This document shows positions 2,547 to 55,550 of a DNA stretch of 64,000 nt, piece after piece. Under the pieces are notes generated by a model. That model did no database searches, was not told where the DNA came from, and saw only the letters and a list, made by a program, of their open reading frames with translations. The stretch comes from Mytilus trossulus. Lineage: Eukaryota. The stretch is from the NCBI RefSeq assembly GCF_036588685.1, contig NC_086383.1, positions 12,462,001 to 12,526,000 of the forward strand, written 5' to 3'. Position 1 is the stretch's first letter, and every line of letters begins with the position of its first letter. The position numbers were made by a program, and so were the translations under genes.

Positions 2547-4484
2547 TTAAATAATTTCACATAGTGAGGCCTTCCCAGAGGTCAAACAGGTGACGATTAA
2601 TTTGTTGCTGCTTGGTGCAAAACGTATTGTCCATGGACTCTCAATTCCTATGGTTGTAGCCGGAATTATTCTTATTAAACTTCCTTCGTTTGTTATTTGA
2701 TGGATATTTGCAGAATTATATCCAGCGATGTATATATTGCCAACCATGTCTACTCCAATCCCTCTTGGACCTGAAAGTTTGGTGTTTGTATAGGTAAATT
2801 TTGTCGTATCACCAACTGAATAATTGACTGAATTATTACAGATACCATATATACAGTCTTGTTCTCCGAGTGATAAAACAAAGTTCGAGTTACTTGCTGT
2901 CTGTCTTTCATTTATTTTTTCTCCATATGGAAAGTTGAGCCAAGTAAGTTTGTTACTAGAACCAATTATTAATTGTTTTTCGTTGACACAGGATAATCCG
3001 TATACTTGTAAAAAAGGAAAAGTCAAAGTTTGTAACAATGTCATTTTATCACTATCAACAACAAATAATGCCTTCTTGGTAGAAGAAATGGCAACTTTTA
3101 ATTGTACTATCGCGGCAATATCCTCAGGTGCATTTGGAAGCAACAATTCTGATAGTAAGCTATTTCCATCGAATTTGTATTTTACTACTTTGTTCCTCCC
3201 ACGAATTGTAAATAGTAGATAGTTTTGTATGAAAATACCACTAGAAGGACCTCTACCTTTACATACGTCGATAACTTGCAGAATTTTGATATTTCCGGTT
3301 CGGAAGTCTATGTTGGATATCCCAAGCATACCGGTCACCTTACTATCAGGTGATTCGTCAACTTTAATAGATCCAAAGGTCTTGGTATTCTTCAAATCAG
3401 CAATAGGAGATGAAGGACTGAAAACAACCGATATTGTTTTAATATTTTTCTTTAAATTTATCATTTCTCCTGCTAGATCAGATATTTTAGGTTCCATTTT
3501 GTTAATTTCCATCAGACATTGCTGCTCGGATCCGTGGTTAAGAACACTATCGAACATGTCTTTCCAATTTTTAACGGCACTTTTGTACGATACACAAGCG
3601 TCTATTTCGTCTTTTAATTTGATACCCACTTGCTTCTTGGTTGAGGTCAACTCTACTTTCATGGTTTCTTCCATTTTGTCAATATGCTTTAAAATTTCCG
3701 TTTTCATATTAGAGACGCTTGTCTCAATCACTTCTATTGAATTATTTACATTGAATAAATTTGAGTTCCGATTTTCAATAATTTCATTAAGCTGGTCAGA
3801 GTGTTCTGTCAGTTTCTCGGATAAGTCATTAGCCGCTTTTGACTGTTTGATACCGGAAGCAGCTTCTTGAATTGAAGTAACATTTTCACATTTACGGTGT
3901 GAAAGTGTAGCGCACGACGTACAACAAGGTTGGGAATGATCCAAACAATAAAATTCTATGATCTTTCCTGTATGCTCGTCACAGCTTTGTACCTCACAAA
4001 CTTCAAAAGGTGTATCACCGGACTTCATTTCTTGAATGTTTAGAAGTTTATGTCTTGCTGACATCTTAAAGTTTTTGTGACATTTTTCGCACTGTTCACA
4101 GAACGCCTCCTCACAAATCGTACACCAGCTTTTTGCTTTTGTACTTTCTTTGTTTAACTGACACGAGTCGCACATTTTCTCTGCCTTCTGTATTGCTCGT
4201 TTATCTAACATTGAGGTAACAAAATGATTTGTAGGCAACGTGGTCGCCCATAATTCTGGCCTTTCTAATGTTTCCACTGATGATACAATTTTTCGACATA
4301 CAGGACATGTAAATCCCTCGGTTATCTTTCCCTTTTCCACAGAAGACACAATGTAGGTATTAATACACGATTCACAGAACGTATGAAGACATGGTAGATA
4401 CTTCGGAACTTTGAATGTTTCCAAACAAATCGTGCAAGTTAACAAATCATCGAAATGTGTTGTATCCTTAATAGGTGTCGCCAT
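2547..4484 (-). CDS. TRIM-family E3 ligase with NHL-like beta-propeller, copy 1 (A-type C-terminus), intact, 645 aa from ATG
   Basis: C3HC4 RING (CTIC...CLHTFCESC...CPVC), two B-boxes, coiled coil and propeller repeats (GPRGIGVDMVGNIYIAG). Single-exon ORF; the ORF track starts at a TTG, the real ATG is at 4484. Confidence 0.92.
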   Translation of the reverse strand: MATPIKDTTHFDDLLTCTICLETFKVPKYLPCLHTFCESCINTYIVSSVEKGKITEGFTCPVCRKIVSSVETLERPELWATTLPTNHFVTSMLDKRAIQKAEKMCDSCQLNKESTKAKSWCTICEEAFCEQCEKCHKNFKMSARHKLLNIQEMKSGDTPFEVCEVQSCDEHTGKIIEFYCLDHSQPCCTSCATLSHRKCENVTSIQEAASGIKQSKAANDLSEKLTEHSDQLNEIIENRNSNLFNVNNSIEVIETSVSNMKTEILKHIDKMEETMKVELTSTKKQVGIKLKDEIDACVSYKSAVKNWKDMFDSVLNHGSEQQCLMEINKMEPKISDLAGEMINLKKNIKTISVVFSPSSPIADLKNTKTFGSIKVDESPDSKVTGMLGISNIDFRTGNIKILQVIDVCKGRGPSSGIFIQNYLLFTIRGRNKVVKYKFDGNSLLSELLLPNAPEDIAAIVQLKVAISSTKKALFVVDSDKMTLLQTLTFPFLQVYGLSCVNEKQLIIGSSNKLTWLNFPYGEKINERQTASNSNFVLSLGEQDCIYGICNNSVNYSVGDTTKFTYTNTKLSGPRGIGVDMVGNIYIAGYNSANIHQITNEGSLIRIIPATTIGIESPWTIRFAPSSNKLIVTCLTSGKASLCEII

Positions 4485-4511
4485 TATCAAAATAAACTTT
4501 GACCGTTAATA

Positions 4512-4538
4512 TACTTCCTTGTGTGCGTGTATTTATAG
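4512..4538 (-). promoter_or_regulatory. Putative core promoter: TATA box (CTATAAATA) with a downstream AGGAAGT motif, about 50 nt upstream of the ATG
   Basis: The TATA sequence is conserved at the same spacing upstream of copies 0, 1, 2, 3, 4 and 6, and altered in copy 5. Confidence 0.45.
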
Positions 4539-5784
4539 TCATTGACTTGGTGTATTTACCTTGATGCAAAAGGTAGATTAGATAAGTAGTATTTAAAAAT
4601 ATACCATCGGCAAATTTATTTAAAGAACAAAAACTTCTTTCTAAAGGAGATTTACAAGTTAAATTTTCGTTTTTGTCAATGCTGAATTTCATCTGAACAT
4701 TTGTGTGTATTTAACATCTTTCAGTGGGTTATTTTTTTCGTTGGATTTTCTTTATCCATGTTATCATTCTCATTTTTTTTTAATTATATTTTCCATCTTT
4801 CTTTGTTATGTAATTATTCAATTCATTCCTGTTCCATGTCTTTGTAACATACCATGCTATGTTAAATTGGAGTTATTACTGTAAGAAAACATATAGATAT
4901 AAGCTAGATGAAGCATGTTTTTGAATTATATAAGCAATAAGTATAGTGTGTTTTATTATGGAAAATCAATGTGTGATGAAGACGTCGAATAAATATGTTT
5001 ATACAAACAATGCTTCTTGTAATTTACTTAAAACATAATGTAAGAATTGTGAACAAAAAAATAGCTTTCTTCTCAAGAGAATTAATTTCAAAAGTACAAT
5101 CGATATCAAAAACTTTTAGAGGACTAATTCTGACTTGTTGTTTTAAATTGTTTTAAACCTTTGATGTATTGTTTGCTATGTATACTTCAATACTAAATCA
5201 TCTGTGAACTATATAATCTCGTTAATGGATATAGATATTGTGTTGTTGTAGTAACTGCATTGGTGGTTCTAGTTTGTATGTATCGTTCGATTCTCATCTA
5301 CTCTTCCCGCAAGCACAAAGTGTTAAGGGTTAGTTGGACCGCAGTAAAACTGTTGATATTAACACGATGTTGCCTTGTGAATTGGTATGTTAAAAGTCGA
5401 CTTAGTATGACGGTCTAGAGCAAGGCAGGATCATTCATATTCCATGAACAGGTTATTCTCCTCAACATTAATGTTAGCTTTGTTGTTGGACGTCAAGCAA
5501 CGATAAACCAATAATTCGTTAATCTGTGGTCTGGTTTTTACTTAAATATATGTTATCATGTACCTCAAGTTATAATACATCTTTGGCTGTAAATATATGT
5601 GTCGAGAGTTTCTGTTGAATGTACTTTAATTTGTTATAGCGTTTTCGACGCTCACATTTTCAAAGATTTTTTTAGCACCGTGTTTTAATCGATGCTGGTG
5701 TGCAATGTTAGACCTAAAGGAGTATTGTTTATAACACACTCCTCTATTTCTTCAGTAAAAATATCAATTACGAATTTCCTAAAA

Positions 5785-6082
5785 CTTTGTGTGCTAACAG
5801 GAATTGTCATTGATATAGTTAAATTTATAAATTTACTGTTTACAAATGTTTGAATTTTTTGAATACTAAGGCTTTTCTCCCTCAGGCATAAATTACCTTA
5901 GCTGTATTTGGCAAAACTTAAAGGAATTGTGGTCTTCAAAGCTCTTCAACTTCGTATTTTATTTGGCCTTTTTAACTGTTTTGGATTCGATCGTCACTGA
6001 TGCGTCTTTTGTAGTCTTTTGTAGACGAAACGCGCGTCTGGCGTATATACTAAATTTAGTCCTGGTACCTATGATGAGTTTA
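5785..6082 (+). mobile_element. Partial family-1 retrozyme-like repeat with a degenerate hammerhead (5991-6044)
   Basis: Body is similar to 11053-11427. The core reads CTGATGC instead of CTGATGA and there is a 10-nt duplication in stem II. Confidence 0.7.
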
Positions 6083-6533
6083 TATTCCTCAAGACTTAGT
6101 ATTATGTATCCTTGGTTTTCAAATATATGGTTTTGACGTTCCTGGTGAAGGTTAATCCAAGAACAACGCTTTAGATGCACCTAATTGGTTCAGTTTTATT
6201 ATAAATATTTAGTATCAAATACAGTCATTTTTCTCAACAGAAACATTTTTTTTTTATATTTTGCTTTCTCTATGCATGTAAAAAAAGTATCTATACCTGA
6301 CAGTTCATGTTAAATAATTATCATCGTTTATTTTTTAGAAAATTAAAATCCGTTTTTTACGCCTTGGTTTTAATTGTTATCGTCTTATATCTTAATGACA
6401 CGTAACATCATAATGTAACCTCCTTTCTTCTGTACAGTAATTCTTAACTTATATAGCTCATTATGTATATTTTCATGTCTCATGTCAGTTTTCTCATGTT
6501 GACATTTGTGATTTATTTTTAAAAAAAAAGTAT

Positions 6534-7328
6534 TTAAATAATTTTACTTATTGATGCCTTCCAATAATCAAACAGGTAACGATAAATTTGTTGCTGTTTG
6601 GTGCAAAACGTATTGCCCATGGGCTCTCAATTCCCACGGTTGTAGCCGGAATTATTTAATTAGATTTCCTTCGTTTGTTATTGGTGGATGTTTGCAGAAT
6701 TATATCCAGAGATGTATGTATTACCAACAATGTCTACTCCAATCCCCCTTGGACCTGAAAGTTTGTTGTTTGTATAGGTAATTTTTTCTCACATAACCGA
6801 CTGAATAATTAACTGAATTCATTCTGGTACTATATATATGCGTATAGTGATAAAACAAAAAGTAAAATCACAAAAATACTGAACTTAGAGGAAAATCAAT
6901 TCGAAAAGTCCATAATCACATGGCAAAATCAAATAACAAAACGCATAAAAAACGAATGGACAAGAACTGTCATATTCCTGACTTGTTACAGGCATCTTCA
7001 AAATTAATGTAGAAAACGGTGGATTAATCTTGGTTAAACAAAGTTCGATCAAAGTTCGAGTTACTACTAGTCTGTCTTTCGTCCATTTGTTCTCCGGATG
7101 AAATGATTATCCATGTACAAAAATGTAAGTTTGTTACTAGGACCAATTATTAATTATTTTTCGTTGACACAGGATAGTCCATATAATTGTATAAATGAAA
7201 ATGTCAAAGTTTGTAACAATGTCATTTTATCACTATCCACTATATATATACTGGTAGACGAAACGGCAACTTTGAATTGTATTATGGTAGAAATATCCTG
7301 GGGTGCATTTGAACGCAACAATTGTGAC
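6534..7328 (-). pseudogene. Orphan TRIM propeller remnant A (A-type 3' end only)
   Basis: Colinear with 2547-3150 but with indels; interrupted by a ~180-bp repeat (about 6858-7035) and abutting an RTE insertion. Confidence 0.8.
6858..7035. repeat. ~180-bp interspersed repeat (aaaatcacaaaaatactgaac...ggattaa), also at about 38575-38745 and 46757-46930
   Basis: Inserted at the same site (tgataaaaca|aagttcgag) in remnants A, C and D; the site is empty in remnant B and copy 1. Confidence 0.7.
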
Positions 7329-8805: not shown

Positions 8806-10746
8806 TTAAACAAATTCACATATTGTTGCTTTGCCAGAAGTCCCACACGTGACAACCATTTTGTTACTTTTCGTTGTAAAACGAATTGCCCATGGATTAA
8901 AAATTCCTACGGTTGAAGCCGGAATTTTTCTTATGAAATCTCCTTCGTTCGTTATTTGGTGGATGTTTCTAGAACTATTTGATGCAATGTATAAATTGCC
9001 CATACAGTCTACTCCTAGCCCTCTAGGATAAATAAATTCAGAGTTTGTATAAGTAAACTTTTTCGTATTGCCCACTACATAATCGACTGTAGTTCTACTG
9101 TCAGCATACATATAATCGGTCTGTGATAATGATAACACAAAGTATGACTGACCTCCAGTCGTCTTTTGATTTACTTGTTGTCCCGACGAAAGGTTTATCC
9201 ATGTGAGTGTGGAACTATCACTAATAATAAATAGTTCTTCATTGACAAAGCTTATTCCATACACTGGTATACCTGGTAAATTCAAGGTTTGTAACAATAT
9301 CATTTTATCACTATCTACTAAACATACTCCCTGCCCAGGAGACGATACTGCAACTTTGAATTGTGTTACTACTGCAATATCCTCGGGTGAACCTGGAAGT
9401 GCTAATTCTGATTGCAAACTTTTTCCTTCACTGTTATACTTCACTACTTTGTTCTTCCCACGAACTGTAAAAAGTAGAAGGTTTTGTATAAATATACCAG
9501 ATGTAGTTCCGGCACCATTACACACGTCAATAGTTTGTAGAATGTTAATTTTTCCAGTGCGGAAGTCGACTTTGTCTATCTCAAGGTTACCACTCAAAGA
9601 AATAACAGAGGATTTATCAACTTTGATACTTCCAAAAGTCTCGGCATTCCTGGTAAAATCTGCTATAAGTGAAGAAGGACTAAAAACAACTTTTACACTC
9701 TTTATATTTTTTACCAAATCTTTCACTTCTTGTTCGAGTTCTGAGATTTTAGGTTCGATTTTATTAACTTCCATCAGACATTGCTGCTCGGATCCATGTT
9801 CTAGAACACTGTCTATCACTGTTTTCCATTTTTTAACAGCGCTACTATAAGACGAAAGCAAACCAACTTCGTCTTCTATTTCTATTCCAACTTGCTTCTT
9901 GGTTGAGGTCAACTCAATTAACAGGGTTTCTTCTATTCGATCTAAATGCTTTAAAATTTCAGTTTTTATATCAGCCACTCTTGTCTTAATCTATCCTGTT
10001 GAATTCTCAACATCAGCTAAATTATTATTTCGATCATCAATAATTTCATCTAACTGAATCACGTGCTCTCTTACTTTTTGGGATAAACCAGACGCTTTCG
10101 TTGACTGTTTGATACCGGAAACGGCTTTTTGGATTGAAGTAACATTTTCACATTTACGGTGTGAAAGTGTAGCGCACGACGTGCAACAAGGTTGAGAATG
10201 ATCCAAACAATAAAATTCTATGATCTTTCCTGCATGCTCTTCACAGCTTTGTACCTCACATACTTCAAAAGGTGTATTACCGGACTGCATTTCTTGAATA
10301 TTTAGAAGTTTATGTCTTGCTGTCATCTTAAAGTTTTTGTGACATTTTTCGCACTGTTCACAGAATGCCTCCTCGCAAATAGTACACCAAGATTTTGCTT
10401 TTGTACTTTCTTTGTTTAACTGACACGAATTGCACATTTTCTCTGCCTTTTGTATTGCTCGTTTATCTAACATTGATGTTACAAAATAATTGGTAGGCAA
10501 CGAGGTCGCCCATACTTCTGGCCTTTCTAATGTTTCCACTGCTGATACAATTTTTCGACAAACAGGACATGTAAATCCCTCGGTTATCTTTCCCTTTTCC
10601 ACAGATGACATAATGTAGGTATTAATACATGTTTCACAGAATGTATGAAGACATGGTAGATACTTTGGAACTTTGAAAGTTTCCAAACAAATCGTACAAG
10701 TTAATAAATCATCGAAGTTTTCTCTGTCCTTAGTGGGTGTCGCCAT
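8806..10746 (-). pseudogene. TRIM copy 2 (B-type), full length but with a single in-frame TAG at 9991-9993
   Basis: ORFs 9991-10752 and 8806-9978 are in the same frame; paralogues have GAG (STGEIK) at the stop position. Confidence 0.88.
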
Positions 10747-11052
10747 TATCAAAATAAACTTTGACCGTTAATATATTTCCTTGTGTGCGTGTATTTATAG
10801 TTATTGACTTGGTGTATTAACCTATAGATGTGAAAGGTAAACACTTTGAGATTAACAGCCAAACGTGTACAACAACAAACTCTTCTACATACACAAGTTT
10901 TTACTAAAGGATAGGGGACAAAGGCTTTAACTGTTATGCTATTTTTAGGTCATTATAAATTATTTTTTTGTTATCTCTTATTCTGAATAGTATTTGTTGT
11001 TGGCTGTTATTGTCTTACATTTCTTATTCCTTGTAATTAGCTGTAGCCTGTA

Positions 11053-11427
11053 GGTACTTTTGATAACTATTTAAACCACTTGGTCGATGCCACCGCATGT
11101 GGACGTTTCGTCCCCGAGGGTATCACTAGACCAGTAGTCAACATTTCGGTGTTGACATGAATATAAATCATGTGGTCATATTTTATAAATTTCCTGTTTA
11201 CACAACTTTGATTTTTTTCGAAAAACTAAGGATTTTCTTATGCCAGGCATAGATTACCTTAGCCGTATTTGGAACAACTTTTTGGAATTTTGGATCCTCA
11301 ATGCTCTTCAACTTTGTACTTGTTTGGGTTTATAAAAAAATTTGATTTGAGCGTCACTGATGAGTCTTATATAGACGAAACGCGCGTCTGGCGTACTAAA
11401 TTATAACCCTGGTACCTTTGATAACTT
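11053..11427 (+). mobile_element. Family-1 retrozyme-like monomer (~358-nt period) with terminal redundancy ggtac(t/c)tttgataact
   Basis: Contains an intact hammerhead; its body is homologous to the 350-nt family-2 unit. A further fragment follows to about 11503. Confidence 0.8.
11351..11394 (+). ncRNA. Minimal type I hammerhead ribozyme, family 1; predicted cleavage after C11388
   Basis: GCGTCA-CTGATGA-GTCT tatat AGAC-GAA-AC GCGC GT-C|TGGCGT; all core nucleotides present. Confidence 0.88.
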
Positions 11428-13304
11428 TATACTACCTAAGTCGCATTTGGCACAACTTTTTTGAATTTTGGATCCTAAATGCTCTTCAACTTTGTTCTTG
11501 TTTGGTGTATTTACCTTGTTGCAAAAGGTAGATTAGATAAACTGTATTTAAAAATGTACCATCGGCAAATTTATTTAAAGTACAAAACCTTCTTTCTTAA
11601 GGAGATTTACAAGTTAAATTTTCTATTTTGTCAATGCTGCATTTCATCTGAACATTTGTGTGTATTTAACATCTTTCAGTGGGTAATTTTTTTCATTGGA
11701 TTTTCTTTATCCATGTTATCATTCTCAATTTTTTTAAATTGTATTTTCCATCTTTCTTTGTTATGTAATTATTCAATACATTCCTGTTCCATGTCTTTGT
11801 AACAGACCATGCTATGTTTATGAAAGTTTGAAATTGGAGTTATTACTGTAAGGAATCATATAAGTATAAGCTAGATGACGCATGTTTCTGAATTATATTA
11901 GTATAATGTGGTTTGTATTGTGAAAAATCAATGCGTGATGATGACGAATAAATATGTTTAAACAAACAATGCTTCTTGTAAACATTATGTAAGAATATTG
12001 CACAACGAATTAGCGATCCTATCAAGAGAAATAATTTCAAAAGTAAATTCGACAACTCATCTAAGTCATCGTTTTATCAAAAACTTGTAGAGGACTAATT
12101 CTGACTCGTTGTTTTTAATTGTTTTTAACCTTTTATGCATATATTGCTATGTATGCTTCAATACTAAATCTGTGAACTATACTATGGAGTTAATGGATAG
12201 AGATTTTGTTCTTACAGTACATTAGTGGTTCTAGTTTGAATGTATCCTTCGATTCTCATCTACTCCTCTCGCAAGCACACAGTGTTAGGGATCGATTGGA
12301 CCGCAGTAAAACTTGTGATATTAAAACGATGTTGCCTTGTGAATTGGTATGTTAAAAGGTCGACTTAGTATGACGGTCTATATCTAGAGCAAGGCAGGAT
12401 CATTCATATTTCATGAACAGGTTCTCATCCTCAATATTCATTTTATCTTTGTTGTTGGACGTCAAGCAACGATAAACCAATAATTCGGTACTCTGTGGTC
12501 TGGTTTTTACTTAAATATTTGTTATCATATACCTCAAGTTATAATACATCCTTGGTTGTTTATACATGTGTCGAGAGTTCCTGTTGAGTGTTCTTTAATT
12601 TGTAGTAGCGTTTTCGACGCTCAAATTTTCACAGAATTTTTTAGCGCCGTGTTATAACCGATGCTGGTGTGCACCGTTAGTCCTAAAGGAGTATGTTTAT
12701 AACACACTCCTCTTAGATAAATAACGAATCATCTAAGATACTAGCTCCCTCGGATAAGTTTACCTTCGATTATTTACTGTTTGGTCACGTAGATTCTAAA
12801 GTATGATGTATCCTTGGTTTTGAGCGTTCCTGGTGAGGGTTAATCCAAGAAGAACGCTTTAGATGCAGCTAATTGGTTCGTTTTATTATAATTATTTAGT
12901 ATCAAAACAGTCATTTTTCTCAATTGCTACAACAGAAACATTTTCTTATAAGTTGCGTTCTCTATGCATGTAATAAATGATCTATACATGCCAGTTCATG
13001 TTAAACAATTATCATCCTTTATTTTTTAGAAAATTAAAATCCTTTTTATTATATTTATTTGTTTCTTATTTATTATTTGTAACTGCTAATATAAATGACT
13101 TTTGGTTTTATGAGTCTTCCTTTACTCCTTGGTTTTAATTGTTATTGTCTTATATCTTAAGGACCGTGACCTACCATCATAATGTCACTTCCTTTCTGTA
13201 CAGTAATTCTTAACTTATAAAGCTCCTAATGTATATTTTCATGTCTCATGTCAGTTTCAGTTTCCTCGTGTTGACATTTGTGATTTATTTTCAAAAAATA
13301 GTAT

Positions 13305-13650
13305 TTAAATAATTTCACATATTGAGGCCTTCCCAGAAGTCAAACAGGTAACGAAAAATGTGTTGCTGCTTGATGCAAAACGCATTCTCCATAGACTCGA
13401 AGTTCCGACAAGGTTGTAGCCAGAATTATTCTAATGAGATTCCCTTCGTTTGTTATTTGATGGATATATGCAGAATTATATCCAGCGATGTATATATTAC
13501 CAGCAATGTCTACTCCAATCTCTCTTGGACCTGCAAGTTTGTTGTTTGTATAGGTAAATTTGTCACACAACCGACTGAATAATTGACTGAATTCATACTG
13601 GTACCATGTAAATGCGTGTATAGTGATAAAACAAAGTTCGAGTTACTACT
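13305..13650 (-). pseudogene. Orphan TRIM propeller remnant B (A-type 3' end)
   Basis: ORF 13340-13570 (KFTYTNNKLAGPREIGVDIAGNIYIAGYNS...) matches the copy 1 C-terminus and is then frameshifted. Confidence 0.82.
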
Positions 13651-13909: not shown

Positions 13910-15851
13910 TTAAACAAATTCACATATTGTTGCTTTGCCAAAATTCCCACACGTTACAACCATTTTGTTACTTTTCGTTGCAAAACGAATTGTCCATGGA
14001 TACACAATTCCTATGGTTGAAGCCGAAATTTTTCTTATGAATTCTCCTTCGTTCGTTATTTGATGAATGTTTCCAGAACTATATGATGCAATGTATAGAT
14101 TGTCCATACAGTCTATTCCGATCCCTCTAGGGTATTTAAATTCAGAGTTTGTATACGTAAACTTTTTCTTGTTGCTGACTACATAATCGACTGCAGTTCT
14201 ACTGTCAGAGTACATATAATCGGTCTGTGATAATGATAACACAAAGTATGATTGACTTCCAGTCGTCCTTTTGTTTATTGTTTGTCCCGACGAAAGGTTT
14301 ATCCATGTGAGTGTGGAACTATGACTTATAATAAAAAGTTCTTCATTGACAAAGCTTATTCCATACACTGGTATACCTGGTAACCTCAAAGTTTGTAACA
14401 ATGCCATCTTATCACTATTTATTAAACATATTCCATGTTCAGGAATGGATACAGCAACTTTGAAGTGGGTTACCACAGCAATGTCCTCCGGTGAACCTGG
14501 AAGTGCCAATTCTGTTAGCAAACTTTGTCCGCCATTGTCATACTTCACTACTTTGTTCTTCCCACGAATTGTAAAAAGTAGAAGGTTTTGTACAAATATT
14601 CCAGACGTTGATCCGGCACCCTTACACACATCGATAACTTGTAGAATGTTAATATTTCCAGTGCGGAAGTCGACTTTGTCTATCTCAAGGTTAAAACTTA
14701 AAGAACAAACAGAAGATTTATCAATTTTAATGTTTCCAAAACTCTTAGTATTCCTTATAAAATCTGTAATAGGGGAAGAAGGACATAAAGCAACTTTTAC
14801 ACTCTTTATATTTTTCACCAAATCTTCAATTTCTTGTTCAAGTTCTGAGATTTTAGGTTCGATTCTATTAATTTCCAACAGGCATTGCTGCTCGGATCCA
14901 TGTTCAAGAACACTGTCTATCACTGTTTTCCACTTTTTAACAGCGCTACTGTAAGACGAAAGCATATCTACTTCGTCTTTTAATTCTATTCCAACTTGCT
15001 TCTTGGTTGAGGTCAACTCGGTTAACAGGGTTTCTTCTATTCGATCTAAATGCTTTAATATTTTAGTTTTAATATCAGCCACTCTTGTCTTAATCTCTCC
15101 TGTTGAATTATCAACATCAGCTAAATTCTTATTTCGATCATCAATAATTTCATCTAAGTGAATCACGTGCTCTCTTAGTTTTTGTGATAAACCAGACGCT
15201 TTCGTTGACTGTTTGATACCGGAAGCGGCTTTTTGGATTGAAGTAACATTTTCACATTTACGGTGTGAAAGTGTAGCGCACGACGTACAACAAGGTTGAG
15301 AATGATCCAAACAATAAAATTCGACGACCTTACCTGGGTGCTCGTCACAGCTTTGTACCTCACATACTTCAAAAGGTGTATCACCGGACTGCATTTCTTG
15401 AATGTTTAAAAGTTTATGTCTTGCTGACATCTTAAAGTTTTTGTGATATTTTTCGCATTGTTCACAGAATGCTTCCTCGCAAATAGTACACCAAGATTTT
15501 GCTTTTGTACTTTCTTTGTTTAACTAACACGAATTGCACATTTTCTCTGCCTTTTGTATTGCTCGTTTATCTAACATTGAGGTAACAAAATGATTGGTTG
15601 GGAGTGATGGCGCCCATAATTCTAGCCTTTTTGATGTTGATCCTGCTGGTACAATTTTTCGACAAACAGGACATGTAAATCCCTCGGTTATCTTTCCCTT
15701 TTTCCACAGATGACACAATGTAGTTATTAATACATGTTTCACAGAAAGTATGAAGACATGGTAGATACTTCGGAACTTTGAAAGTTTCCAAACAAATCGT
15801 ACAAGTTAATAAATCATCGAAGTTTTCTCTATCCTTGGTGGGTGTCGCCAT
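13910..15851 (-). pseudogene. TRIM copy 3 (B-type), with a +1 frameshift near 15700 and CAG>TAG at 15524-15526
   Basis: Three ORF pieces (15567-15857, 15524-15742, 13910-15430) together rebuild the full protein. Confidence 0.88.
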
Positions 15852-17969: not shown

Positions 17970-18164
17970 ATGAATATCAATCATGTGGTCATTTGTTTTT
18001 ATAATTTTCCTGTTTACAAAACTTTGATTTTTTCGAAAAAATAAGGATTTTTTTATTCCAAGCATAGATTACCTTAGCCGTATTAAGCACAACTTTTTGG
18101 AATTTTAGGTCCTCAATGCTCTTCAACTATGTACTTGTTTGGCTTTATAAATGTTTCGATTTGA

Positions 18165-31959: not shown

Positions 31960-31962
31960 AGT

Positions 31963-34441: not shown

Positions 34442-36391
34442 CTAGCTTACAATTTCACACAATGCTGCCTTTCCAGAACTAATGCATGTGACGATGAATT
34501 TGTTGCTTCCTGGTGCAAAACGTATTGTCCATGGCTTTTCAATTCCTACGGCTGAAGCCGGAATTCGTCTTATGAATTCTCCTGTGTTCGTTATTTGGTG
34601 GATGTTTCTAGAACTATTTGATGCAATGTATAAATTGCCCATACAGTCTACTCCTAGTCCTCTAGGATAAATAAATTCAGAGTTGGTATAAGTAAATTTT
34701 TTCGTATTGCCGACTACATAATCGACTGAATTGTAACTGTCAGCATACATGTAATCGGTCTGTGATAATGATAACACAAAGTACGATTGACCACTGGTCC
34801 TCTTTTGATTTACTTGTTGTCCTGATGACAGATTTATCCATGTAACCGTGGAACCATGACTAATAATAAAAATTTCTTCATTGACAAAGCTTATCCCATA
34901 CACTGGTATACCTGGAAAATTCAAAGTTTGTAACAATGCCATCTTATCACTATCTATTAAACATATTGCATGCGGAGGAATGGATACAGCAACTTTGAAG
35001 TGGGTTACCACAGCAATGTCCTCCGGTGAATCTGGAAGTGCCAATTCTGTTAGCAAACTTTGTCCGCCATTGTCATATTTCACTACTTTGTTCTTCCCAC
35101 GAAATGTAAAAAGTAAAAGGTTTTGTACAAATATTCCAGAGGTAGTTCCGGTACCATTACACACGTCGATAACTTGTAGAATGTTAATATTTCCAGTGCG
35201 GAAGTCGACTTTTTCTTCTTTCATCTCAATGTTACCATTCAAAGAACTAACAGTGGATTTATCAACTTTAATTCTTCCAAACGTCTGGGCATTCTTGATA
35301 AAATCTGTAATAGGTGAGGAAGGACTAAAAACAACTGATACACTCTTTATATGTTTTATCAAATCTTTCATTTCTTGCTGGAGTTCGAAGATTTTAGGTT
35401 CGATTTTATTAATTTCCATCAGACATTGCTGATCGGATCCATGATCCAGAACACTGTCTATCATTGTTTTCCATTTTTTAACAGCGCTACTATAAGACGA
35501 AAGCATACCAACTTCGTCTTTTAATTCTATTCCAACTTGCTTCGTGGTTGAGGTCAACTCGGTTAACAGGGTTTCTTCTATTCGATCTAAATGCTTTAAA
35601 ATTTCAGTTTTGATATCAGCCACTCTTGTCTTAATCTCTCCTGTTGAATTCTCAATATCAGCTAAATTCTTATTACGATCATCAATAATTTCACCTATCT
35701 GAATAACGTTCTCTCTTAATTTTTGTGATAAACTCGATGCTCTCGTTGACTGTTTGATACCGGAAGCGGCTTTTTGGATTGAAGTGACATTTTCACATTT
35801 ACGGTGTGAAAGTGTTGCGCATGATGTGCAACAAGGTTGAGAATGATCCAAACAATAAAATTCTATGATCTTTCCTGGATGCTCGTCACAGCTTTGTACC
35901 TCACATACTTCAAAAGGTGTACCACCGTACTTCATTTCTTGAATGTTTAGAAGTTTATGTCTTGCTGTCATCTTAAAATTTTTGTGACATTTTTCGCACT
36001 GTTCACAGAATGCTTCCTCGCAAATAGTACACCAGCTGTTTGCTTTTGTACTTTCTTTGTTTAACTGACACGAATTGCACATTTTCTCTGCCTTCTGTAT
36101 TGCTCGTTTATCTAACATTAATTTTACAAAATGATTTGTAGGCAACGTGGTCGCCCATAATTCTGGTCTTTCTAATGTTTCCACTGCTGATACAATTTTT
36201 CGACAAACAGGACATGTAAATCCCTCGGTTATCTTTCCCTTTTTCACAGATGACACAATGTAGGTATTAATACATGATTCACAGAAGGTATGAAGACATG
36301 GTAGATACTTCGGAACTTTGAATGTTTCCAAACAAATCGTGCAAGTTAACAAATCATCGAAGTTGTCTTTATCCTTAGTGGGTGTCGCCAT
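34442..36391 (-). CDS. TRIM-family E3 ligase with NHL-like beta-propeller, copy 4, intact, 649 aa from ATG
   Basis: Uninterrupted single-exon ORF with RING, B-box1, B-box2, coiled coil and propeller; ATG at 36391. Confidence 0.92.
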   Translation of the reverse strand: MATPTKDKDNFDDLLTCTICLETFKVPKYLPCLHTFCESCINTYIVSSVKKGKITEGFTCPVCRKIVSAVETLERPELWATTLPTNHFVKLMLDKRAIQKAEKMCNSCQLNKESTKANSWCTICEEAFCEQCEKCHKNFKMTARHKLLNIQEMKYGGTPFEVCEVQSCDEHPGKIIEFYCLDHSQPCCTSCATLSHRKCENVTSIQKAASGIKQSTRASSLSQKLRENVIQIGEIIDDRNKNLADIENSTGEIKTRVADIKTEILKHLDRIEETLLTELTSTTKQVGIELKDEVGMLSSYSSAVKKWKTMIDSVLDHGSDQQCLMEINKIEPKIFELQQEMKDLIKHIKSVSVVFSPSSPITDFIKNAQTFGRIKVDKSTVSSLNGNIEMKEEKVDFRTGNINILQVIDVCNGTGTTSGIFVQNLLLFTFRGKNKVVKYDNGGQSLLTELALPDSPEDIAVVTHFKVAVSIPPHAICLIDSDKMALLQTLNFPGIPVYGISFVNEEIFIISHGSTVTWINLSSGQQVNQKRTSGQSYFVLSLSQTDYMYADSYNSVDYVVGNTKKFTYTNSEFIYPRGLGVDCMGNLYIASNSSRNIHQITNTGEFIRRIPASAVGIEKPWTIRFAPGSNKFIVTCISSGKAALCEIVS

Positions 36392-38253: not shown

Positions 38254-39025
38254 TTAAATAATTTCACATATTGAGGCATACCCAGAAGTCAAACTTGTAA
38301 CGATGAATTTGTTGCTGCTTGGTGCAAAATGTATTTTCCATGGACTCTTAATACCTACAGTTGTAGCTGGAATTATTCTAATTAGATTTCCTTCGTTTGT
38401 TATTTGATGGATATTTGCAGAATTATATAAGGCGATGTATATATTACCAACAATGTCTACTCCAATCTCTCTTGGAACTGTTGTTTGTATAGGTTAACTT
38501 TGTCACTTAACCGACTGAATAATTGATTGAATTCATACTGGTACCATAAATATGTGTGTGTAGTGATAAAACAAAAAGTAAAATCACAAAAATACTTACC
38601 TTAGAGGAAAATCATTTCGGAAAGTCCATAATCACATGGCAAAATCAAATAACAAAACGCATAAAAAACAATGGACAGAAACTATCATATTCCTGACTTG
38701 GAACAGTCACCTTTAAATGTAGAAAATGGTGGATTAAACTTGGTTTAACAAAGTTCGAACAAAGTTCGAGTTACTACTAGTCTGTCTTTCGTCCATTTGT
38801 TCTCCAGATGGAATGATTATCCATGTAAGTTTGTTACTAGAACCAATTAATAATTGTGTCTAGTCGACACAGGATAATCCTTGTATAAATGGATTTGTCA
38901 AAGTTTGTAACAATGTCATTGTATCACTATCCACAATATATACTTGTACACGTAACGGCAACTTTGAATTGTATTATCGTAGAAATATCCGCGGGTGCAT
39001 TTGGACGCGACAATTGTGATACTAA
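38254..39025 (-). pseudogene. Orphan TRIM propeller remnant C (A-type 3' end)
   Basis: Colinear with the copy 1 3' region; same breakpoint and same internal insert as remnants A and D. Confidence 0.8.
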
Positions 39026-42172: not shown

Positions 42173-44124
42173 TTACTTACTAACAATTTCACACAATACT
42201 GCTTTTCCAGAACTATTGCATGTGACCAGAAATTTGTTGCTTCCTGGTGCAAAATGTATTGTACATGGTTTTTCAATTCCAACGGCGGAAGCCGGAATTT
42301 TTCTTATGAGTTCTCCTGTGTTTATTATTTGGTGGATGTGTTTTGAAGTAAATGATACAATGTATAAATTGCCCATAAAGTCTTTTCCAATCCCTCTAGG
42401 AAAATGCAAATCAGAGTTGGTATAGGTAAACTTTTTAGTTGTGCCGCCTACATAATCGACAGAAGTTGTACTGTTGGCAAAAATATAATCAGTATTTGAT
42501 AAAGATGACACAAAGTACGATTCGTCAGTAGTCTTTCTATTGGTTATTGTTTGTCCGGAAGAAATATTTATCCATGTAAGTGTGGATTTATAACAAGTTA
42601 TAAATATTTCTTCATTGACAAAGCATAATCCATACACTGGTATACCTGGTAATTTCAAGATTTGTAACAATACCATCTGATCACTATCTACTACACATAC
42701 TCCCTGCCCAGGAGACGAAACTGCAACTTTGAATTGCTTTACTACAGAGATGTCCTCCGGTGCACCTTGGATTGCCAATTCTGATTGCAAACTTTGTCCA
42801 TCACTGTTATACTTCACTACTTTGTTCTTCCCACGAATTGTGAAAAGTAGAAGGTTTTGTATAAATATTCCAGACGTAGTTCCGGTACCATTACACACGT
42901 CGATAACCTGTAGAATGTTAATATTTCAAGTGCGGAAGTCGACTTTGTCTACTTTCATCTCAAGGTTACCATTCAAAGAACTAACAGCGGATTTATCAAC
43001 TTTAATTCTTCCAAACGTCTGGGCATTCTTGATAAAATCTGTAATGGGGGAAGAAGGACTAAAAACAACTGATACACTCTTTATTGTTTTCACCAAATCT
43101 TCAATTTCTTGTTCAAGTTCTGAGATTTTAGGTTCTATTTTATTCATTTCCATCAGACATTGCTCCTCGGACCCATATTCTAGAACACTGTCTATCACTG
43201 TTTTCCATTTTTTAACGGCGCTCCTGTAAGAAGAAAGAACACCTACTTCGTCTTTTAATTCTATTCCAACTTGCTTCTTGGTTGAGGTCAACTCGGATAA
43301 CAGGATTTCTTCTATTCGATCTATATGCTTTAAAATTTCAGTTTTTATATCAGCCACTCTTGTCTTAATCTCCTCTGTTGAAATCGAAACATCAGCTAAA
43401 TTCTTATTTCGATCATCAATAATTTCACCTATCTGAATAACGTGCTCTCTTAATTTTTGTGATAAACCCGATGCTCTCGTTGACTGTTTGATACCGGAAG
43501 CGGCTTTTTGGATTGAAGTCACATTTTCACATTTACGGTGTGAAAGTGTAGCGCATGATGTGCAACATGGCTGAGAATGGTCTAAACAATAAAATTCTAT
43601 GATCTTCCCTGGATGTTCGTCACAGCTTGATACCTCCCATACTTCAAAAGGTGTATCACCGAACTTCATTTCTTGAATGTTTAGAAGTTTATGTCTTGCT
43701 GACATCTTAAAGTGTTTGTGATATTTTTCGCATTGTTCACAGAACGCCTCCTCACAAATCGTACACCAGCTTTTCGCTTTTGTACTTTCTTTGTTTAATT
43801 GGCACGAGTCGCACAATTTTACTGCCTTTTGTATTGCTTGTTTATCCAACATTGATGCTACAAAATGATTTGTAGGCAACGTGGTCGCCCATAATCATGG
43901 CCTTTCTAATGTTTCACTGCTGGTACAATTTTTCGACAAACAGGACATGTAAATCCCTCGGTTATCTTTCCCTTTTCCACAGATGACACAATATAGGTAT
44001 TAATACATGATTCACAGAAGGTATGAAGACATGGTAAATACTTCGGAACTTTGAATATTTCCAAACAAATCGGGCAAGTTAACAAATCATCAAAATGTTC
44101 TGTATCCTTAGTGGGTGTCGCCAT
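42173..44124 (-). pseudogene. TRIM copy 5, with a -1 frameshift near 43915 and GGA>TGA at 42926-42928
   Basis: ORF pieces 43906-44130, 42926-43879 and 42173-42898 rebuild the full protein; the TATA motif is also altered. Confidence 0.88.
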
Positions 44125-45106
44125 TATCAAAATAAACTGTGACTATTAATACTTCCTTGTGTGTGTGTAGACATAGCTATTGATTTTCAATGTATTTATC
44201 TCGTTGCAAAAGGTAAATTAGATAAACAGTATTTAAAAATATACCATTAGCAAACTCATTTAGAGTACAAAAACTTCTTTCTAAAGGAGATTTACACGTT
44301 AAATTTTCTATTTTGTCAATGCTGCATTTCATCTGAGCAGTTCAATGTATTAAACATCTTTCAGTGGGTTATATTTTTTTCGTGGGATTTTCTTTATCAT
44401 TTTTTTCAATAATATTTTCCATCTTTCTTTGTTATGTAATTGTTCAATTCATTTCTGTTCCATGTCTTTGTAACACATGTTTATGAAAGTTTTAAATTGG
44501 AGTTATTACTGTAAGGAAACATATAAATATAAGCTAGATGCAGCATGTTTCTGAATTATATTAGTACAGTGTGTTTTGTTTTATTAAAAATCAATGTGTG
44601 TGATGATGACGAATTAATATGTTTAAACAAAGAATGCTTCTTGTAATTTACTTAAAACATAATGTAAGAATATTAAACAACGAATTAGCCATAATCGCAA
44701 GAGAATTAATTTCAAAAGTACAATCGACAACTCATCTTAGGCATCGTTCTATCAAAAACTTGTAGAGGACTTATTCTGACTCGTTGTTTTATACTGTTTT
44801 AAACCTTTTATGTATAGTTAGCTATGTATACTTCAATGTTGTTAATGACTGTGTCATTTTGGTCTTTTATGGATAGTTGTCTCATTGGCAATCATACCAC
44901 ATCTTCTTTTTGATATTCAATACTAAATCTGTGAACTATATAATCTCGTTACTGGATAGAGATTGTGTTTTTGTAGCAACTGCATTGGTGGTTCTAGTTT
45001 GAATGCATCCTTCGATTCTTATCTACTCCTCCTGCAAGCACACAGTAATAGGGGTTGATTGGACCGCAGTAAAAAATTATCAAAGGTACCAGGATTATAA
45101 ATTAGT

Positions 45107-45150
45107 ACGCCAGACGCGCGTTTCGTCTACATAAGACTCATCAGTGACGC
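45107..45150 (-). ncRNA. Minimal type I hammerhead, family 1, intact, within a ~160-bp insert (about 45076-45236)
   Basis: Reverse complement: GCGTCA-CTGATGA-GTCT tatgt AGAC-GAAAC GCGC GTC|TGGCGT. The insert is absent from paralogous blocks and flanked by taaaa. Confidence 0.88.
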
Positions 45151-45830
45151 TCATATCAAAATATTTTTAAAGCCAAACAAGTACAAAATTGAAGAGCATT
45201 GAGAATCTAAGATTCCAAAAAGTTGTGCCAAATACGTATAAAACTTTTGATATTAGTACGATGTTGCCTTGTGAATTGGTATGTTAAAAGTTCGACTTAG
45301 TGTGACGGTCTATATCAAGTCAGAATCATTCATATTTCATGAACAGGATATCATCCTCAATATTCATTTTAGCTTTGTTGTTTGACGTCAAGCAACGATA
45401 AACCAATAATTCGGTACTCTGTGGTCTGGTGTTTACTTAAATATTTGTTATCATGTACCTCAAGTTATAATACATCTTTGACTAAATATATGTGTCGAGA
45501 ATTTCTGTTGAATGTACTTTAATTTGTAATAGCGTTTTCGACGCTCAAATTTTCAAGGATTTTTTTAGCACCGTGTTATAACCGAAGCTGGTGTGAACTG
45601 TTATTCCTAAAGTAGTATTGTTGATAACACACTCCTCTTTTCTTCAGTAAAAATATAAATAACGAATCATCTAAGATACTAGCTCCCTCGGACAAGTTTA
45701 CCTTCGATTAATTACTGTTTGGTCACGTAGATTCTAAAGTACTTAGTATATTGTATCCTTGGTTTTCAAATATATAACTTTGAGCGTTCCTGATGAAAGT
45801 GAATCCAAGAAGAACGCTTTAGATGCACCT

Positions 45831-46426: not shown

Positions 46427-47448
46427 TCAAATAATTCCACATAGTGGGGCCTTCCTAGAAGTCGAACAATCAACGAAAAAGATTTTGCTTCTTGGTGCAA
46501 AACGTATTGTCCATAGACACTCAATTCCCACGGTTGTAGCCGGATTTTTTCTAATTAGATTTCCTTCGTTTGTTATTTGTGGATGTTTCCAGAATTATAT
46601 CCAGCGATGTATATATTACCAACAATATCTTCTCCGATCACTCTTGGACCTGAAAGTTTGTTGTTTGTAGAGGTAAATTTTGTCACTTAACTAACTGAAT
46701 ACTTGACTGATTCATACTGGTACCATATACTAGTATATGTGCATAGTGCTTAAACAAAAAGTAAAATCACAAAAATACTGAACTTAGAGGAAAATCAATT
46801 CGGAAAATCCATAATCACATGGCAAAATCCACTAACAAAAAACATAAAAAACGAATGGACAAGAACTGTCATATTCTGACTTGGTACAGGCATTTTCAAT
46901 TGTAGAACATGGTGCACTAAACCTTGTTTAACAATAAAATTAATGGTACCATTTTCTTGGCACCAGATGCGCATTTAGACAATACATGTCTCTTCAGTGA
47001 TGCTCGTGGTCAAACTATTTGAAATCCAAAGCTTATATAAAAGATGAAGAGCTATAATCCAAAAGGTCCAAAAAGTATAGCCAAATCCGTGAAAGGAATC
47101 AAAGCTTTGCATGAGGGAGATACGTTCCTTAATTGAAAATAATTTTTAATATTTTGTAACAGCAAATTTTAATAACACAAAAAAATCCGTATTTTCATGC
47201 CAAAAAAGTTCGAGTTACTACTAGTCTGTCTTTCATCCGTTTTTCTCCGGATGGAATGATTATCCATGTAAGTTTGTTACTAGAACCAATTAATAATTGT
47301 GTCTCGTTGACACAGGATAATCCATGTACTTGTATAAATGGAAATTTCAAAGTTTGTAAAAATGTCATTGTATCACTATCCACAATATATACTGGAAGAC
47401 GAAACGGCAACTTTGAATTGCATTTGGACGCAACAATTGTGATAGTAA
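46427..47448 (-). pseudogene. Orphan TRIM propeller remnant D (A-type 3' end) with two nested inserts
   Basis: ORF 47195-47410 (VDSDTMTFLQTLKFPFIQVHGLSCVNETQLLIGSSNKLTW) matches copy 1. Confidence 0.8.
46931..47201 (-). mobile_element. Partial family-2 retrozyme-like unit; its hammerhead (46960-47003) has GAAA>TAAA and is predicted inactive
   Basis: Reverse complement of about 8230-8495. Confidence 0.8.
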
Positions 47449-47877
47449 TATGACATTCAATATTATTGAGGATAGTAAAAACTCAATTTTAGTTTAGTTT
47501 TTTAGCGCTATCTGGTCTCACATGGGAGTCATATATGAACGCTGCTTTACCAAACATAACATAACTTTACTTACACATGTTACAGTCTCACATCAAACAC
47601 TTCAGGTAGTTTTTTTATTATAAACATTCGTAAAGTAGTATGATATATAGAATAAAGAAAAAAAATTTTAATTAAAATCAATTTAAGTAAGCATATAATT
47701 CTTTAAATGACCGTATTTATTTTATTGTGTCGTTTTTTAATGTGAATGCATATGTTAATTTCCTTGACTTATCTTATTATACCATGCGTTTGTATCGTTT
47801 AAATAAATCTCATATATGATACACGTATGGTACTTAGGGTAGTAAGTTTAAAAAATAGATGCTTTATCCATGAGGTT

Positions 47878-50168
47878 TTAACCAAATTCCATATTGTTGC
47901 TTTGCCAGTATTCGAACATGTGACAACCATTTTGTTACTATTCGTTGCAAAACGAATTGTCCGTGGAAACTCAATTCCTACGGTTGAAGACGGGATTTTT
48001 CTTATCAATTCTCCGTTATTTGGTGGATGTTTTTAGATTGGTTTGTTGCAATGTATAAATTGCCCATACAGTCTATTCCAATCCATCTAGGGTAAGATAA
48101 ATCAGAGTTGGTATAAGTAAACTTTTTCGTGTTACCGAATACATAATCGACAGAAGTGTGACTGTCAGCAAACATGTAATCAGTCTGTGATAATGATAAC
48201 ACAAAGTAAGATTGACCACTAGCTGTCCTTTTGTTAATTGTTTGTCCTGATGAAAGGTTTATCCACGTGAGTGTTGAACCATGACCAGTAATAAATATTT
48301 CTTCATTGACAAAGCATAATCCATACACTGGTATACCTGGTAAATTCAAAGTTTGTAACAAAATCAACGTATCACTATCTATTACACATATTCCATGCTT
48401 AGGAATGGATACAGCAACTTTGAAGTGGGTTACCGCAGCAATGTCCTCCGGTGAACCTGGAAGTGCCAATTCTGATAGCAAACTTTGTCCGTCATTGTTA
48501 TACTTCACTACTTTGTTCTTCCCACGAACTGGGAAAATTTCGATAAAATTTCGAAGTTACTATAACAAAATGGCGATTAAATAATTCTCAAACGTAGACG
48601 TTGATTTTGCACATGCAAATAATTCAAGAAAGATTTAACTGTTTTTAATTGCAATTAAATATGACATGTTATTGTAAATCGTATGATGATCAGAATAAAG
48701 CTAGATTGTGGAGATATTAATTAAGTCATCAACGTGATCAAAGAAAACAAACATGGCAACGTGGCCTAATCACGATGTAAGTTTTGTATATATATTAGTA
48801 TTATACGATTGTTTATGAAATCATTTTATTATAATATTTTGTATTAACAAAAGAAAACCACGAATGGATGATATGGTAACAAAGATGAAATATCTATAAA
48901 TATATATTGTTTAAATCATTACACAGGTAACCAGTACAGTTTGCATAACCCTAATTTAACCAGTCAAATACAGAGTCCTCGAAACTCATTATGACTGGAA
49001 TAGTTGCTTTTGCATTCAAAGAACTAACAGCGGATTTGTCAACTTTAATTCTTCCAAACGTCTGGGCATTCTTGATAAAATCTGTAATAGGGGGAGAAGG
49101 ACTAAAAACAACTGATACACTCTTTATATTTTTCACCAAATCTTCAATTTCTTGTTCAAGTTCTGATATTTTAGGTTCGATTTTATTAATTTCCATCAGA
49201 CATTGCTCCTCGGACCCATGTTCAAGAACACTGTCGATCACTGTTTTCCATTTTTTAACAGCGCTACTATAAGATGAAAGCATACCTACTTCGTCTTTTA
49301 CTTCTATTTCAACTTGCTTCTTGGTTGAGGTCAACTCGGTTAACAGGGTTTCTTCTATTCGATATAATTGCTTTAAAATTTCAGTCTTTATATCAGTCAC
49401 TTTTGTCTTAATCTCTTCTGTTGAAGTCTCAACATCAGCTAAATTCTTATTTCGATCATTAATAATTTCACCTATCTGAATCACGTGCTCTCTTAGTTTT
49501 TGTGATAAACCAGACGCTTTCGTTGACTGTTTGATACCCGAAGCGGCTTTTTGGATTGAAGTAACATTTTTACATTTACGATGTGAAAGTGTAGCGCACG
49601 ACGTACAGCAAGGTTGAGAATGATCCAAACAATAAAATTCTATGATCTTTCCTGGATGCTCGTCACAGCTTTGTACCTCACATACTTCAAAAGGTGTATT
49701 ACCGGACTGCATTTCTTGAATGTTTAGAAGTTTATGTCTTGCTGACATCTTAAAGTTTTTGTGACATTTTTCGCACTGTTCACAGAACGCCTCCTCACAA
49801 ATCGTACACCAGCTTTTCGCTTTTGTACTTTCTTTGTTTAACTGACACGAATTGCACATTTTCTCTGCCTTTTGTATTGCTCGTTTATCTAACATTGATG
49901 TTACAAAATGATTGGTAGGCAACGTGGTCGCCCATAATTCTGGTCTTTCCAATGTTTCCACTGCTGATACAATTTTTCGACAAACAGGACATGTAAATCC
50001 TTCGGTTATCTTTCCCTTTTCCACAGATGACACAATGTAGGTATTTATACACGATTCACAGAACGTATGAAGACATGGTAGATACTTCGGAACTTTGAAA
50101 GTTTCTAAACAAATTGTACACGTCAATAAATCATCGTAGTTTTCTGTATCCTCAGTGGGTGTCGCCAT
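47878..50168 (-). pseudogene. TRIM copy 6 (B-type): RING/B-box/coiled-coil part open (405 aa to 48951); propeller cut off by foreign sequence at about 48531-49012 and frameshifted
   Basis: Homology stops after VSSLN and resumes at VRGKNKVVKY; 7-nt deletion near 48014 and 1-nt deletion near 47890. Confidence 0.85.
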
Positions 50169-55453: not shown

Positions 55454-55463
55454 AGACTCTTTT

Positions 55464-55482: not shown

Positions 55483-55550
55483 GAATTCTGAAAATACTAA
55501 GGTACGTGTGATATTTTATTTTGATAATCTTAATTATTATATTCTCAAAA

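Follow-up and report, generated by a model that had tools for sequence, protein, structure and literature searches.

A 64,000-nucleotide (nt) stretch of the mussel Mytilus trossulus genome (RefSeq assembly GCF_036588685.1, contig NC_086383.1, forward-strand positions 12,462,001 to 12,526,000; 'the window' below) carries a tandem array of TRIM genes, with six full-length genes and one that is cut by the window edge, and two more in the left flank. We consider it probable that these single-exon genes are mutual mosaics whose predicted NHL propeller is most variable on its top face, each intact copy likely pairing a conserved ligase module with a different putative binding surface. All nine full-length copies run head-to-tail on the minus strand and have the structure RING/B-box/B-box/coiled-coil/propeller in a single coding exon. 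Copies c1 to c6 lie in the window, c0 extends over its left edge, and cm2 and cm3, both broken, lie to the left of c0. By their coiled coil and propeller, c1 and cm2 form subtype A and c0 and c2 to c6 form subtype B, with cm3 divergent. Three of the nine (c0, c1 and c4) are intact, and the other six carry stops, frameshifts or an insertion.

Judged from alignments of the copies, recombination between them is real, and no single tree fits the gene. The mosaic was likely produced by ordinary germline gene conversion together with unequal crossover. Short conversion tracts (about 50-200 bp) would recombine top-face loop variants among the B copies, and longer exchanges would place a B-type promoter and RING/B-box onto a coiled coil and propeller of A type. 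New top faces would be favoured by diversifying selection from ligands that change, which most likely come from pathogens. We read the array as a family shaped by birth-and-death turnover and gene conversion, with the NHL propeller as its variable domain.

Recombination between copies

A sequence-only reading of the window had named six patches in which the propeller of one copy matches that of another, and all six proved to be real in the DNA, with the named partner the best match each time. Four of them lie in c4, the intact B-type gene of 649 amino acids (aa) at 34442..36391 (minus strand, as for every array feature located below), the background for such comparisons being a propeller-wide identity of 79-86%. 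The patch at 34976..35080 matches c3 in 103 of 105 nt. Two others match c2, in 21 of 21 nt (34802..34822) and, over most of blade 5, in 95 of 96 nt (34586..34681), and the blade-6 region matches c5 in 105 of 117 nt (34448..34564). The remaining two join c5 to c2 and c5 to c6, each in 38 of 39 nt. The c4/c3 patch is actually a three-way match of c3, c4 and c6 (99 of 105 nt for the last), and the blade-6 match of c4 and c5 accompanies their common 3' flank. Both blade-6 types are present in M. edulis and M. galloprovincialis proteins, which makes them an ancient dimorphism, reassorted relative to the remainder of the gene.

That the copies have been shuffled by recombination, as had been proposed, is borne out by several kinds of test. 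The pairwise homoplasy index (PHI) gives p<=0.001 for the whole gene and for the propeller, and its significance in both the RING/B-box and the propeller survives the removal of close site pairs. Synonymous sites alone, in the B copies, yield p=0.001 for the whole gene, 0.010 for the RING/B-box and 0.002 for the propeller; on the propeller of all nine copies the synonymous-site test gives p=0.29, and in the coiled coil mosaicism was not detected (PHI p 0.2-0.9). The propeller PHI has a z of -12.2, compared with a mean of 0.06 and a minimum of -3.56 in 150 clonal simulations with clustered fast codons. Triplet tests pass Bonferroni correction in 19 of 60 cases. Approximately unbiased (AU) tests across segments also reject most trees, although we give them little weight, as the segments were chosen post hoc and each was set against its own best tree.

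The incompatibility of site pairs grows with their distance, being 0.24 at 3-10 bp and 0.53 at 101-200 bp, and reaches a plateau by 100-200 bp. This climb and levelling implies short tracts of perhaps 50-200 bp. The exchanges evidently join equivalent positions of different copies, in patches that are blade-sized or smaller. In addition, the flank types of c0 to c6 assort independently: c4 and c5 have common 3' flanks, c3 and c6 have common 5' pieces, and one proximal 5' flank type is common to c0, c1, c4 and c5. This independent assortment suggests that unequal crossover has acted besides conversion.

The sequence-only reading contrasted a constant RING/B-box module with a shuffled propeller, and this contrast stands for non-synonymous change but not for recombination, given that the RING/B-box is mosaic too (PHI p<=0.01, at synonymous sites as well). 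Its description of the first 210 or so residues as near-identical was likewise overstated: identity over residues 1-210 is 87-94% within c1 to c6 and 81-83% against c0, and this N-terminus is itself a mosaic. For the propeller, identity is 66-82% within subtype B (six copies) and 54-61% when c1 is compared with that subtype. Among B copies, synonymous divergence (dS) is 0.315 in the RING/B-box versus 0.303 in the propeller, whereas non-synonymous divergence (dN) is 0.062 versus 0.149, so that dN/dS is 0.20 and 0.49, respectively. Thus, by these rates, the RING/B-box is shown to be under strong purifying selection. It looks constant because of this selection (equal dS, lower dN) and because the A and B subtypes share it up to residue 207-215.

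This sharing across subtypes, which the sequence-only reading did not report, is by our comparisons the largest recombination signal of the locus. Between A and B copies, dS is 0.28 in the RING/B-box, 0.83 in the coiled coil and 0.72 in the propeller. Sites diagnostic of A number 2 in nt 1-630 versus 82 in nt 631-1125, with a dense run from nt 647. The intact A-type gene c1 (2547..4484, 645 aa) is accordingly chimeric, its 5' flank and RING/B-box being B-like and its coiled coil and propeller A-type; these diagnostic sites put the border between the shared pool and A-specific sequence directly after B-box 2 (nt 620-646; 3839..3865). The c1 upstream flank (4485..5775) has 93.6% identity over 1304 nt with that of c4, which is higher than c4 shows to the far flank of any B copy (82-87%). 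Exact cross-subtype tracts reach 108 nt between c1 and c6 and 90 nt between cm2 and c5. Between c1 and cm2, dS is 0.065 in the coiled coil and 0.25 in the RING/B-box, a contrast consistent with RING/B-box exchange that continued after their split. In protein trees, three A proteins form a 100% clade in the coiled coil and propeller and are scattered in the RING/B-box. These comparisons show A and B drawing on one RING/B-box pool to residue 207-215 and diverging beyond it. The significant conversion tracts that had been anticipated fall chiefly in this shared region: a GENECONV-like test that allows no mismatches finds seven significant identical tracts overall, six of them in the RING/B-box and none in the propeller (the c1/c4 tract skips gapped columns; its exact count is 74 nt).

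Variation on the propeller top face

The assignment of the C-terminus to the NHL class comes from a predicted fold. In c4, the RING spans residues 16-64 or so and is followed by two B-boxes, a putative coiled coil and, at 400-648, the NHL propeller with its six blades. Folding this propeller from a single sequence gave only a predicted local distance difference test (pLDDT) score of 35.8, and the model was therefore built from a 53-sequence alignment. It is a six-bladed propeller of 24 strands, with a pLDDT of 95.3 and a predicted template-modelling (TM) score of 0.91, and in a Foldseek search of the PDB ranks 1-10 are all NHL domains (Thin, Brat, TRIM2, Mei-P26), the top matches at TM 0.74-0.82. 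The Pfam NHL repeat PF01436 gives no match at E<=1 in c4 or c1, whose propellers have only weak SGL, TEN_NHL and SBBP matches below cut-off; the stretch 570-610 resembles Thin NHL by sequence. The RING matches Pfam zf-RING_UBOX above cut-off (E 4e-10, residues 16-60) and has TRIM3 and TRIM2 as its top sequence matches. Two zf-B_box stretches score at cut-off in c4 and slightly below it in c1, and residues 104-203 match the Midline-1 B-box region. The putative coiled coil is assigned by sequence matches (14-324 to TRIM25 and 167-334 to TRIM72), and no Pfam match to a filamin domain was found. The modelled fold therefore gives the proteins a TRIM-NHL architecture without a Pfam NHL match, one that likely couples a conserved putative ubiquitin-ligase module to a variable propeller.

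Loops were classed from the strands of the model and from a published definition of the Brat top face as the b-c and d-a loops (PMC4015489). Mapping variable sites onto the predicted surface, a check that had been proposed for this array, places them on the top face: all five positions with at least four residues in the six B copies are on top loops, which make up 63 of 248 positions. In these copies the top loops have a dN of 0.239 (0.454 for the b-c loops alone), compared with 0.126 for bottom loops and 0.12 for strands (top versus bottom p=0.010). The most variable site, codon 553 (34733..34735), is on a top-face b-c loop, with 5 residues in 6 copies and a posterior of 1.0 in the high dN/dS class. 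Six B-type proteins from other Mytilus, taken as one protein per 90% cluster, have nine of ten such positions in the propeller on top (top versus bottom p=0.003), and top positions 553 and 574 vary in other species as well. VDI02238 and CAG2237096, an M. galloprovincialis / M. edulis pair of predicted proteins compared at the amino-acid level, have a single difference in 399 N-terminal residues and 15 in the 249 of the propeller, 11 of the latter on top loops (p=8e-5); if 572-574 is counted as one event, 9 of 13 are on top (p=0.0008), or p=0.10 for loops only. Counted from residues rather than electrostatics, the net charge of the top loops ranges from -1 to +1 for the B type (six copies) and is +4 in the A copies, and that of the bottom loops is -3 to -6. 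On the modelled propeller, variable residues are thus shown to concentrate on the b-c and d-a loops. Candidate residues for intracellular recognition (c4 numbering) are 431, 472-473, 553, 574, 592-593, 619 and 637.

Site models place about 1% of propeller codons at a dN/dS of 9-15, with the flagged sites all on top loops and none in the RING/B-box or coiled coil. The likelihood-ratio test (LRT) statistic is 13.5, or 11.9 when six segments are used. Per-domain dN/dS, another proposed check, therefore separates the two modules, but formal positive selection in the propeller is marginal and remains suggestive, the positional concentration being the firmer of the two results.

The most serious alternative, which we regard as unlikely but far from negligible, is that the whole pattern is a neutral by-product: conversion and crossover are usual in tandem arrays, the top loops would be the least constrained part of the propeller, and the array would be subject to drift and decay, with nothing selecting for novel specificities. 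If true, this would be an ordinary decaying tandem array. A number of results do weigh against our preferred reading. Simulated conversion without positive selection passes the nominal site-model test in 12 of 40 runs, with a highest LRT of 12.8, and the simulations show more positions with at least four residues (mean 8.8) than the five observed. The propeller-wide dN/dS of 0.49, and 0.79 for top loops overall, are below one, and the value of 1.50 for top b-c loops has an interval of 0.90-2.52. In this genome alone, the top versus bottom difference at the amino-acid level has p=0.055, and the five-of-five count restricted to loops has p=0.069. A second, equally mosaic array described below has no site-model signal (nine copies, LRT 1.56), and six of the nine copies here are broken. 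Moreover, NHL top faces differ between human paralogues with no arms race invoked in the excerpted account (PMC9634614). With regard to the exchanges themselves, the six B copies alone have no significant identical tract in the GENECONV-like test, which weighs against very recent propeller exchange, and DNA trees with a forced A or B clade in the RING/B-box are not rejected (AU p=0.25 and 0.19).

However, neutrality does not readily account for the position of the changes. Bottom loops are also exposed and have half the dN, and top positions 553 and 574 recur as variable in other species, where the cross-species pair described above differs almost only on this face. The Brat top face is functional and mutation-sensitive (PMC4015489), so relaxed constraint only there would be unexpected. 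Furthermore, none of the 40 conversion-only simulations reaches the observed LRT. Given the nominal positives that conversion alone generates, we treat selection as suggestive and not proven, and continue to favour mosaic copies that probably present different putative binding surfaces.

Broken copies, donor templates and assembly

The sequence-only reading proposed that disrupted copies might serve as donor templates, and this idea found no support. The broken B-type copies in the window are c2 (8806..10746; stop at codon 252), c3 (13910..15851; a 1-nt insertion, and thus a frameshift, in the RING region plus a stop), c5 (42173..44124; a 1-nt deletion causing a frameshift, and two stops) and c6 (47877..50168; interrupted from 49013 to 48537 by about 475 nt in place of 123 nt, with a 7-nt deletion near the 3' end). 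In their RING/B-box, private changes number 18 non-synonymous to 18 synonymous, which is below neutral expectation (p=1e-4) and similar to the 25 to 19 of intact copies (broken versus intact p=0.65). In the propeller, this comparison is near 1 for c5 and c6, but not for c2 and c3. The signature of purifying selection indicates that the broken copies were functional until recently. The element TATAAATA is conserved 53-55 nt upstream of c0, c1, c2, c3, c4 and c6 (53 nt before the c1 ATG) and is absent upstream of c5; with it retained by c2, c3 and c6, most broken copies likely keep a putative core promoter. We would therefore see them as genes lost not long ago in the course of birth-and-death turnover. 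Like any neighbouring copy, they may have taken part in conversion, and nothing marks them as a maintained library.

Five propeller-only remnants are also present in the array and its flank, all of them A-type, with 81-89% identity to c1/cm2 and 63-74% to B copies. Those in the window are at 6534..7327, 38254..39025 and 46429..47420, each in two pieces, and at 13305..13647. The remnants precede a gene start by about 1.3-2.6 kb, and this placement suggests that the repeated unit was likely an A-plus-B pair. As candidate donors the remnants were rejected, having no tracts in common with the B genes. At the left edge, the 5' part of the intact B-type gene c0 (648 aa) occupies 1..589 and continues past the window.

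A dedicated donor system, in which the genome would retain the broken copies and the propeller remnants as one-way templates for intact genes, possibly used somatically, is in our judgement very improbable. Chicken immunoglobulin genes and antigenic variation are comparison systems for donor-template conversion of this kind. The intact c4 does have patches in common with broken c2, c3 and c5, and the five remnants do lie in the array and its flank. Yet the selective constraint on the broken copies matches that of intact ones, the broken copies are mosaic themselves, and the longest exact match of a remnant to a B copy is 24 nt. The c4 junction between blades 5 and 6 also recurs in another sample, and in other Mytilus a like patchwork is seen in related proteins, there among genes that are intact.

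Even less credible is an assembly artefact, in which chimeric joins of similar copies or haplotypes made the patchwork: the array is repetitive, the animal is heterozygous and no contig examined spans a whole gene, but contigs from a DNA run (X1) have no differences from c4 over 34306-34615, 34628-34781 and 34754-34950 (although X1 may be the source sample), X3 and X5 contigs from another study match it at 98-99% over the blade-5/6 junction (an X5 contig crosses it with 5 differences in 528 nt), the patchwork also occurs in proteins from other assemblies, and the patches are far shorter than assembly joins. X1 lists no difference at the c2 stop, which does not by itself prove the stop. X3 and X5 cover 28 of 30 and 25 of 30 bins around c4 and 10 of 30 and 8 of 30 over c2-c3, leaving unique spacer uncovered; this fits transcription of c4, with the two samples only guessed to be RNA and missing cover uninformative. 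A 194-nt X3 contig, unphased, has 3 differences from c3 and 13 from c4 at the equivalent gene position.

Related arrays, comparable systems and neighbouring elements

Expansion of TRIM genes in bivalves, which the sequence-only reading took as known, was not confirmed in the literature searched, but the genome itself supports it: a search with the c4 propeller region gives at least 113 scored matches in several clusters of the 1.3-Gb genome, fragments included. A second TRIM array lies about 9 Mb away on the same contig (3.42-3.62 Mb). Twelve copies were fetched, of which the nine with a full-length frame were analysed and the three with interrupted frames left out. It is mosaic in both the RING/B-box and the propeller (PHI p=0.002), with a dN of 0.227 on top versus 0.103 on bottom loops (p=0.0015). 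In other Mytilus, protein-level PHI gives p=0.0007 for 8 propellers and 0.0003 for 9 RING/B-box sequences. Within this genome, the mosaic pattern thus characterises the family and is not peculiar to a single locus. Among named proteins, the nearest are those of M. edulis, M. galloprovincialis, M. californianus and M. coruscus, and the database names on relatives (TRIM56, TRIM2/3, TRIM33-like) are inconsistent automatic labels. More TRIM-propeller clusters lie on C10 and C12. In the second array, copies L011 and L013 have 99% identity in the RING/B-box, 98% in the coiled coil and 93% in the propeller. One predicted M. edulis protein (P0001) has a full propeller followed by a second, partial one, which might reflect duplication within the gene or a join made in annotation.

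The copies share RING, B-boxes, a putative coiled coil and a predicted six-bladed NHL-type propeller with the TRIM-NHL proteins of subfamily C or class VII (TRIM2, 3, 32, 71, TRIM56, Thin/Abba, Brat; PMC3503706, PMC9634614, PMC4015489), a subfamily in which TRIM2/3/32/45/56/71 are placed (PMC3503706). However, TRIM-NHL genes number 3-5 per genome (PMC4015489), unlike the mosaic tandem array of a large mussel family, and the mussel propeller has only 11-15% identity to theirs and a top face that is not consistently basic. An antiviral role is reported for the NHL-like TRIM56 (PMC6623546, PMC11768893, PMC9634614). In process, the array resembles two fish systems and is a member of neither, because it lacks their B30.2 (PRY-SPRY) domain, the mussel C-terminus being a predicted propeller. 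FinTRIMs (van der Aa et al. 2009, PMC2657112) are likewise an expanded TRIM family with pseudogenes and with variable sites on C-terminal-domain loops, and GARD places breakpoints in that domain as well as in their RING/B-box. They differ in their B30.2 C-terminus, in the single coding exon of the mussel genes, and in strong positive selection that extends to the RING/B-box, as compared with the marginal, propeller-only signal here. Zebrafish NLR-B30.2 genes (PMC4852459) belong to a different protein family; there too, conversion read from synonymous divergence differs between effector and recognition domains, and short tracts combine recognition-domain substitutions. The polarity is reversed: in zebrafish, conversion crosses group boundaries in the recognition domain and stays within groups in NACHT, whereas in the mussel the RING/B-box is common across subtypes and the coiled coil and propeller are subtype-specific. 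This reversed pattern, with the effector module shared and the dimerisation and binding parts kept apart, would be a clean case of domain-limited concerted evolution. Primate TRIM5alpha also has hypervariable ligand-facing loops on its C-terminal domain (as described in PMC2657112), but this is a B30.2 domain with a demonstrated capsid ligand, whereas a ligand-facing role in the mussel is only predicted.

We found no description of conversion or selection in bivalve TRIM-NHL genes in the literature searched, which did not cover subscription journals. In the paper on the mussel pan-genome (PMC7653742), the main text is without 'tripartite', 'B-box', 'NHL' or 'gene conversion', although its supplements could list the family, and the excerpted text of PMC3503706 has no occurrence of 'mollus'. 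What appears new is the NHL propeller fold predicted for the C-terminus, with hypervariable residues on its modelled top face. A bolder proposal, which we offer only tentatively, is that in mussels the normally conserved, few-copy TRIM-NHL has given rise to numerous variable receptors that recognise pathogens inside the cell. Their hypervariable binding site would be the top of the NHL propeller, with loops reassorted by short conversion, and RING/B-box and promoter would be swapped between old subtypes. The receptor role of the copies is an inference. Known variable TRIM receptors are vertebrate and B30.2-based; if the proposal is true, the mussel genes would be an invertebrate counterpart of TRIM5 and finTRIMs built on a different domain, a convergent solution with relevance to intracellular recognition in a farmed animal without adaptive immunity.

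Several unrelated elements lie in and near the window. A Ty3/Gypsy-type long terminal repeat (LTR) element at 54980-63028 (plus strand) has 476-nt LTRs that are 99.2% identical and a target duplication of 4-5 nt, matches to capsid, zinc knuckle, protease, reverse transcriptase, RNase H and integrase, and a pol frame with in-frame stops. A 23-nt unit is repeated 16 times in tandem at 61843-62209. At about 25890-29616 there is a 3.7-kb element, presumably foldback/Mutator-like, whose long inverted ends consist of a minisatellite with a 21-nt unit and which has what looks like a target duplication of 9 nt; it lies between open frames that resemble pieces of a non-LTR element (no Pfam match). A very high-copy short element is at about 11050-11500, where the summed depth of X1 contigs reaches 1.9 million, and pieces related to it occur at 5824-6084, 17970-18243, 45068-45236 and 50575-50781. 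Direct tandem duplications occupy 30828-33094 (two units of 1136 nt at 97.9% identity) and 21280-22608 (a unit of about 550 nt at 94-95%), and an uninterrupted retrotransposon-like open frame of 1574 aa lies about 28-32 kb to the left of the window.

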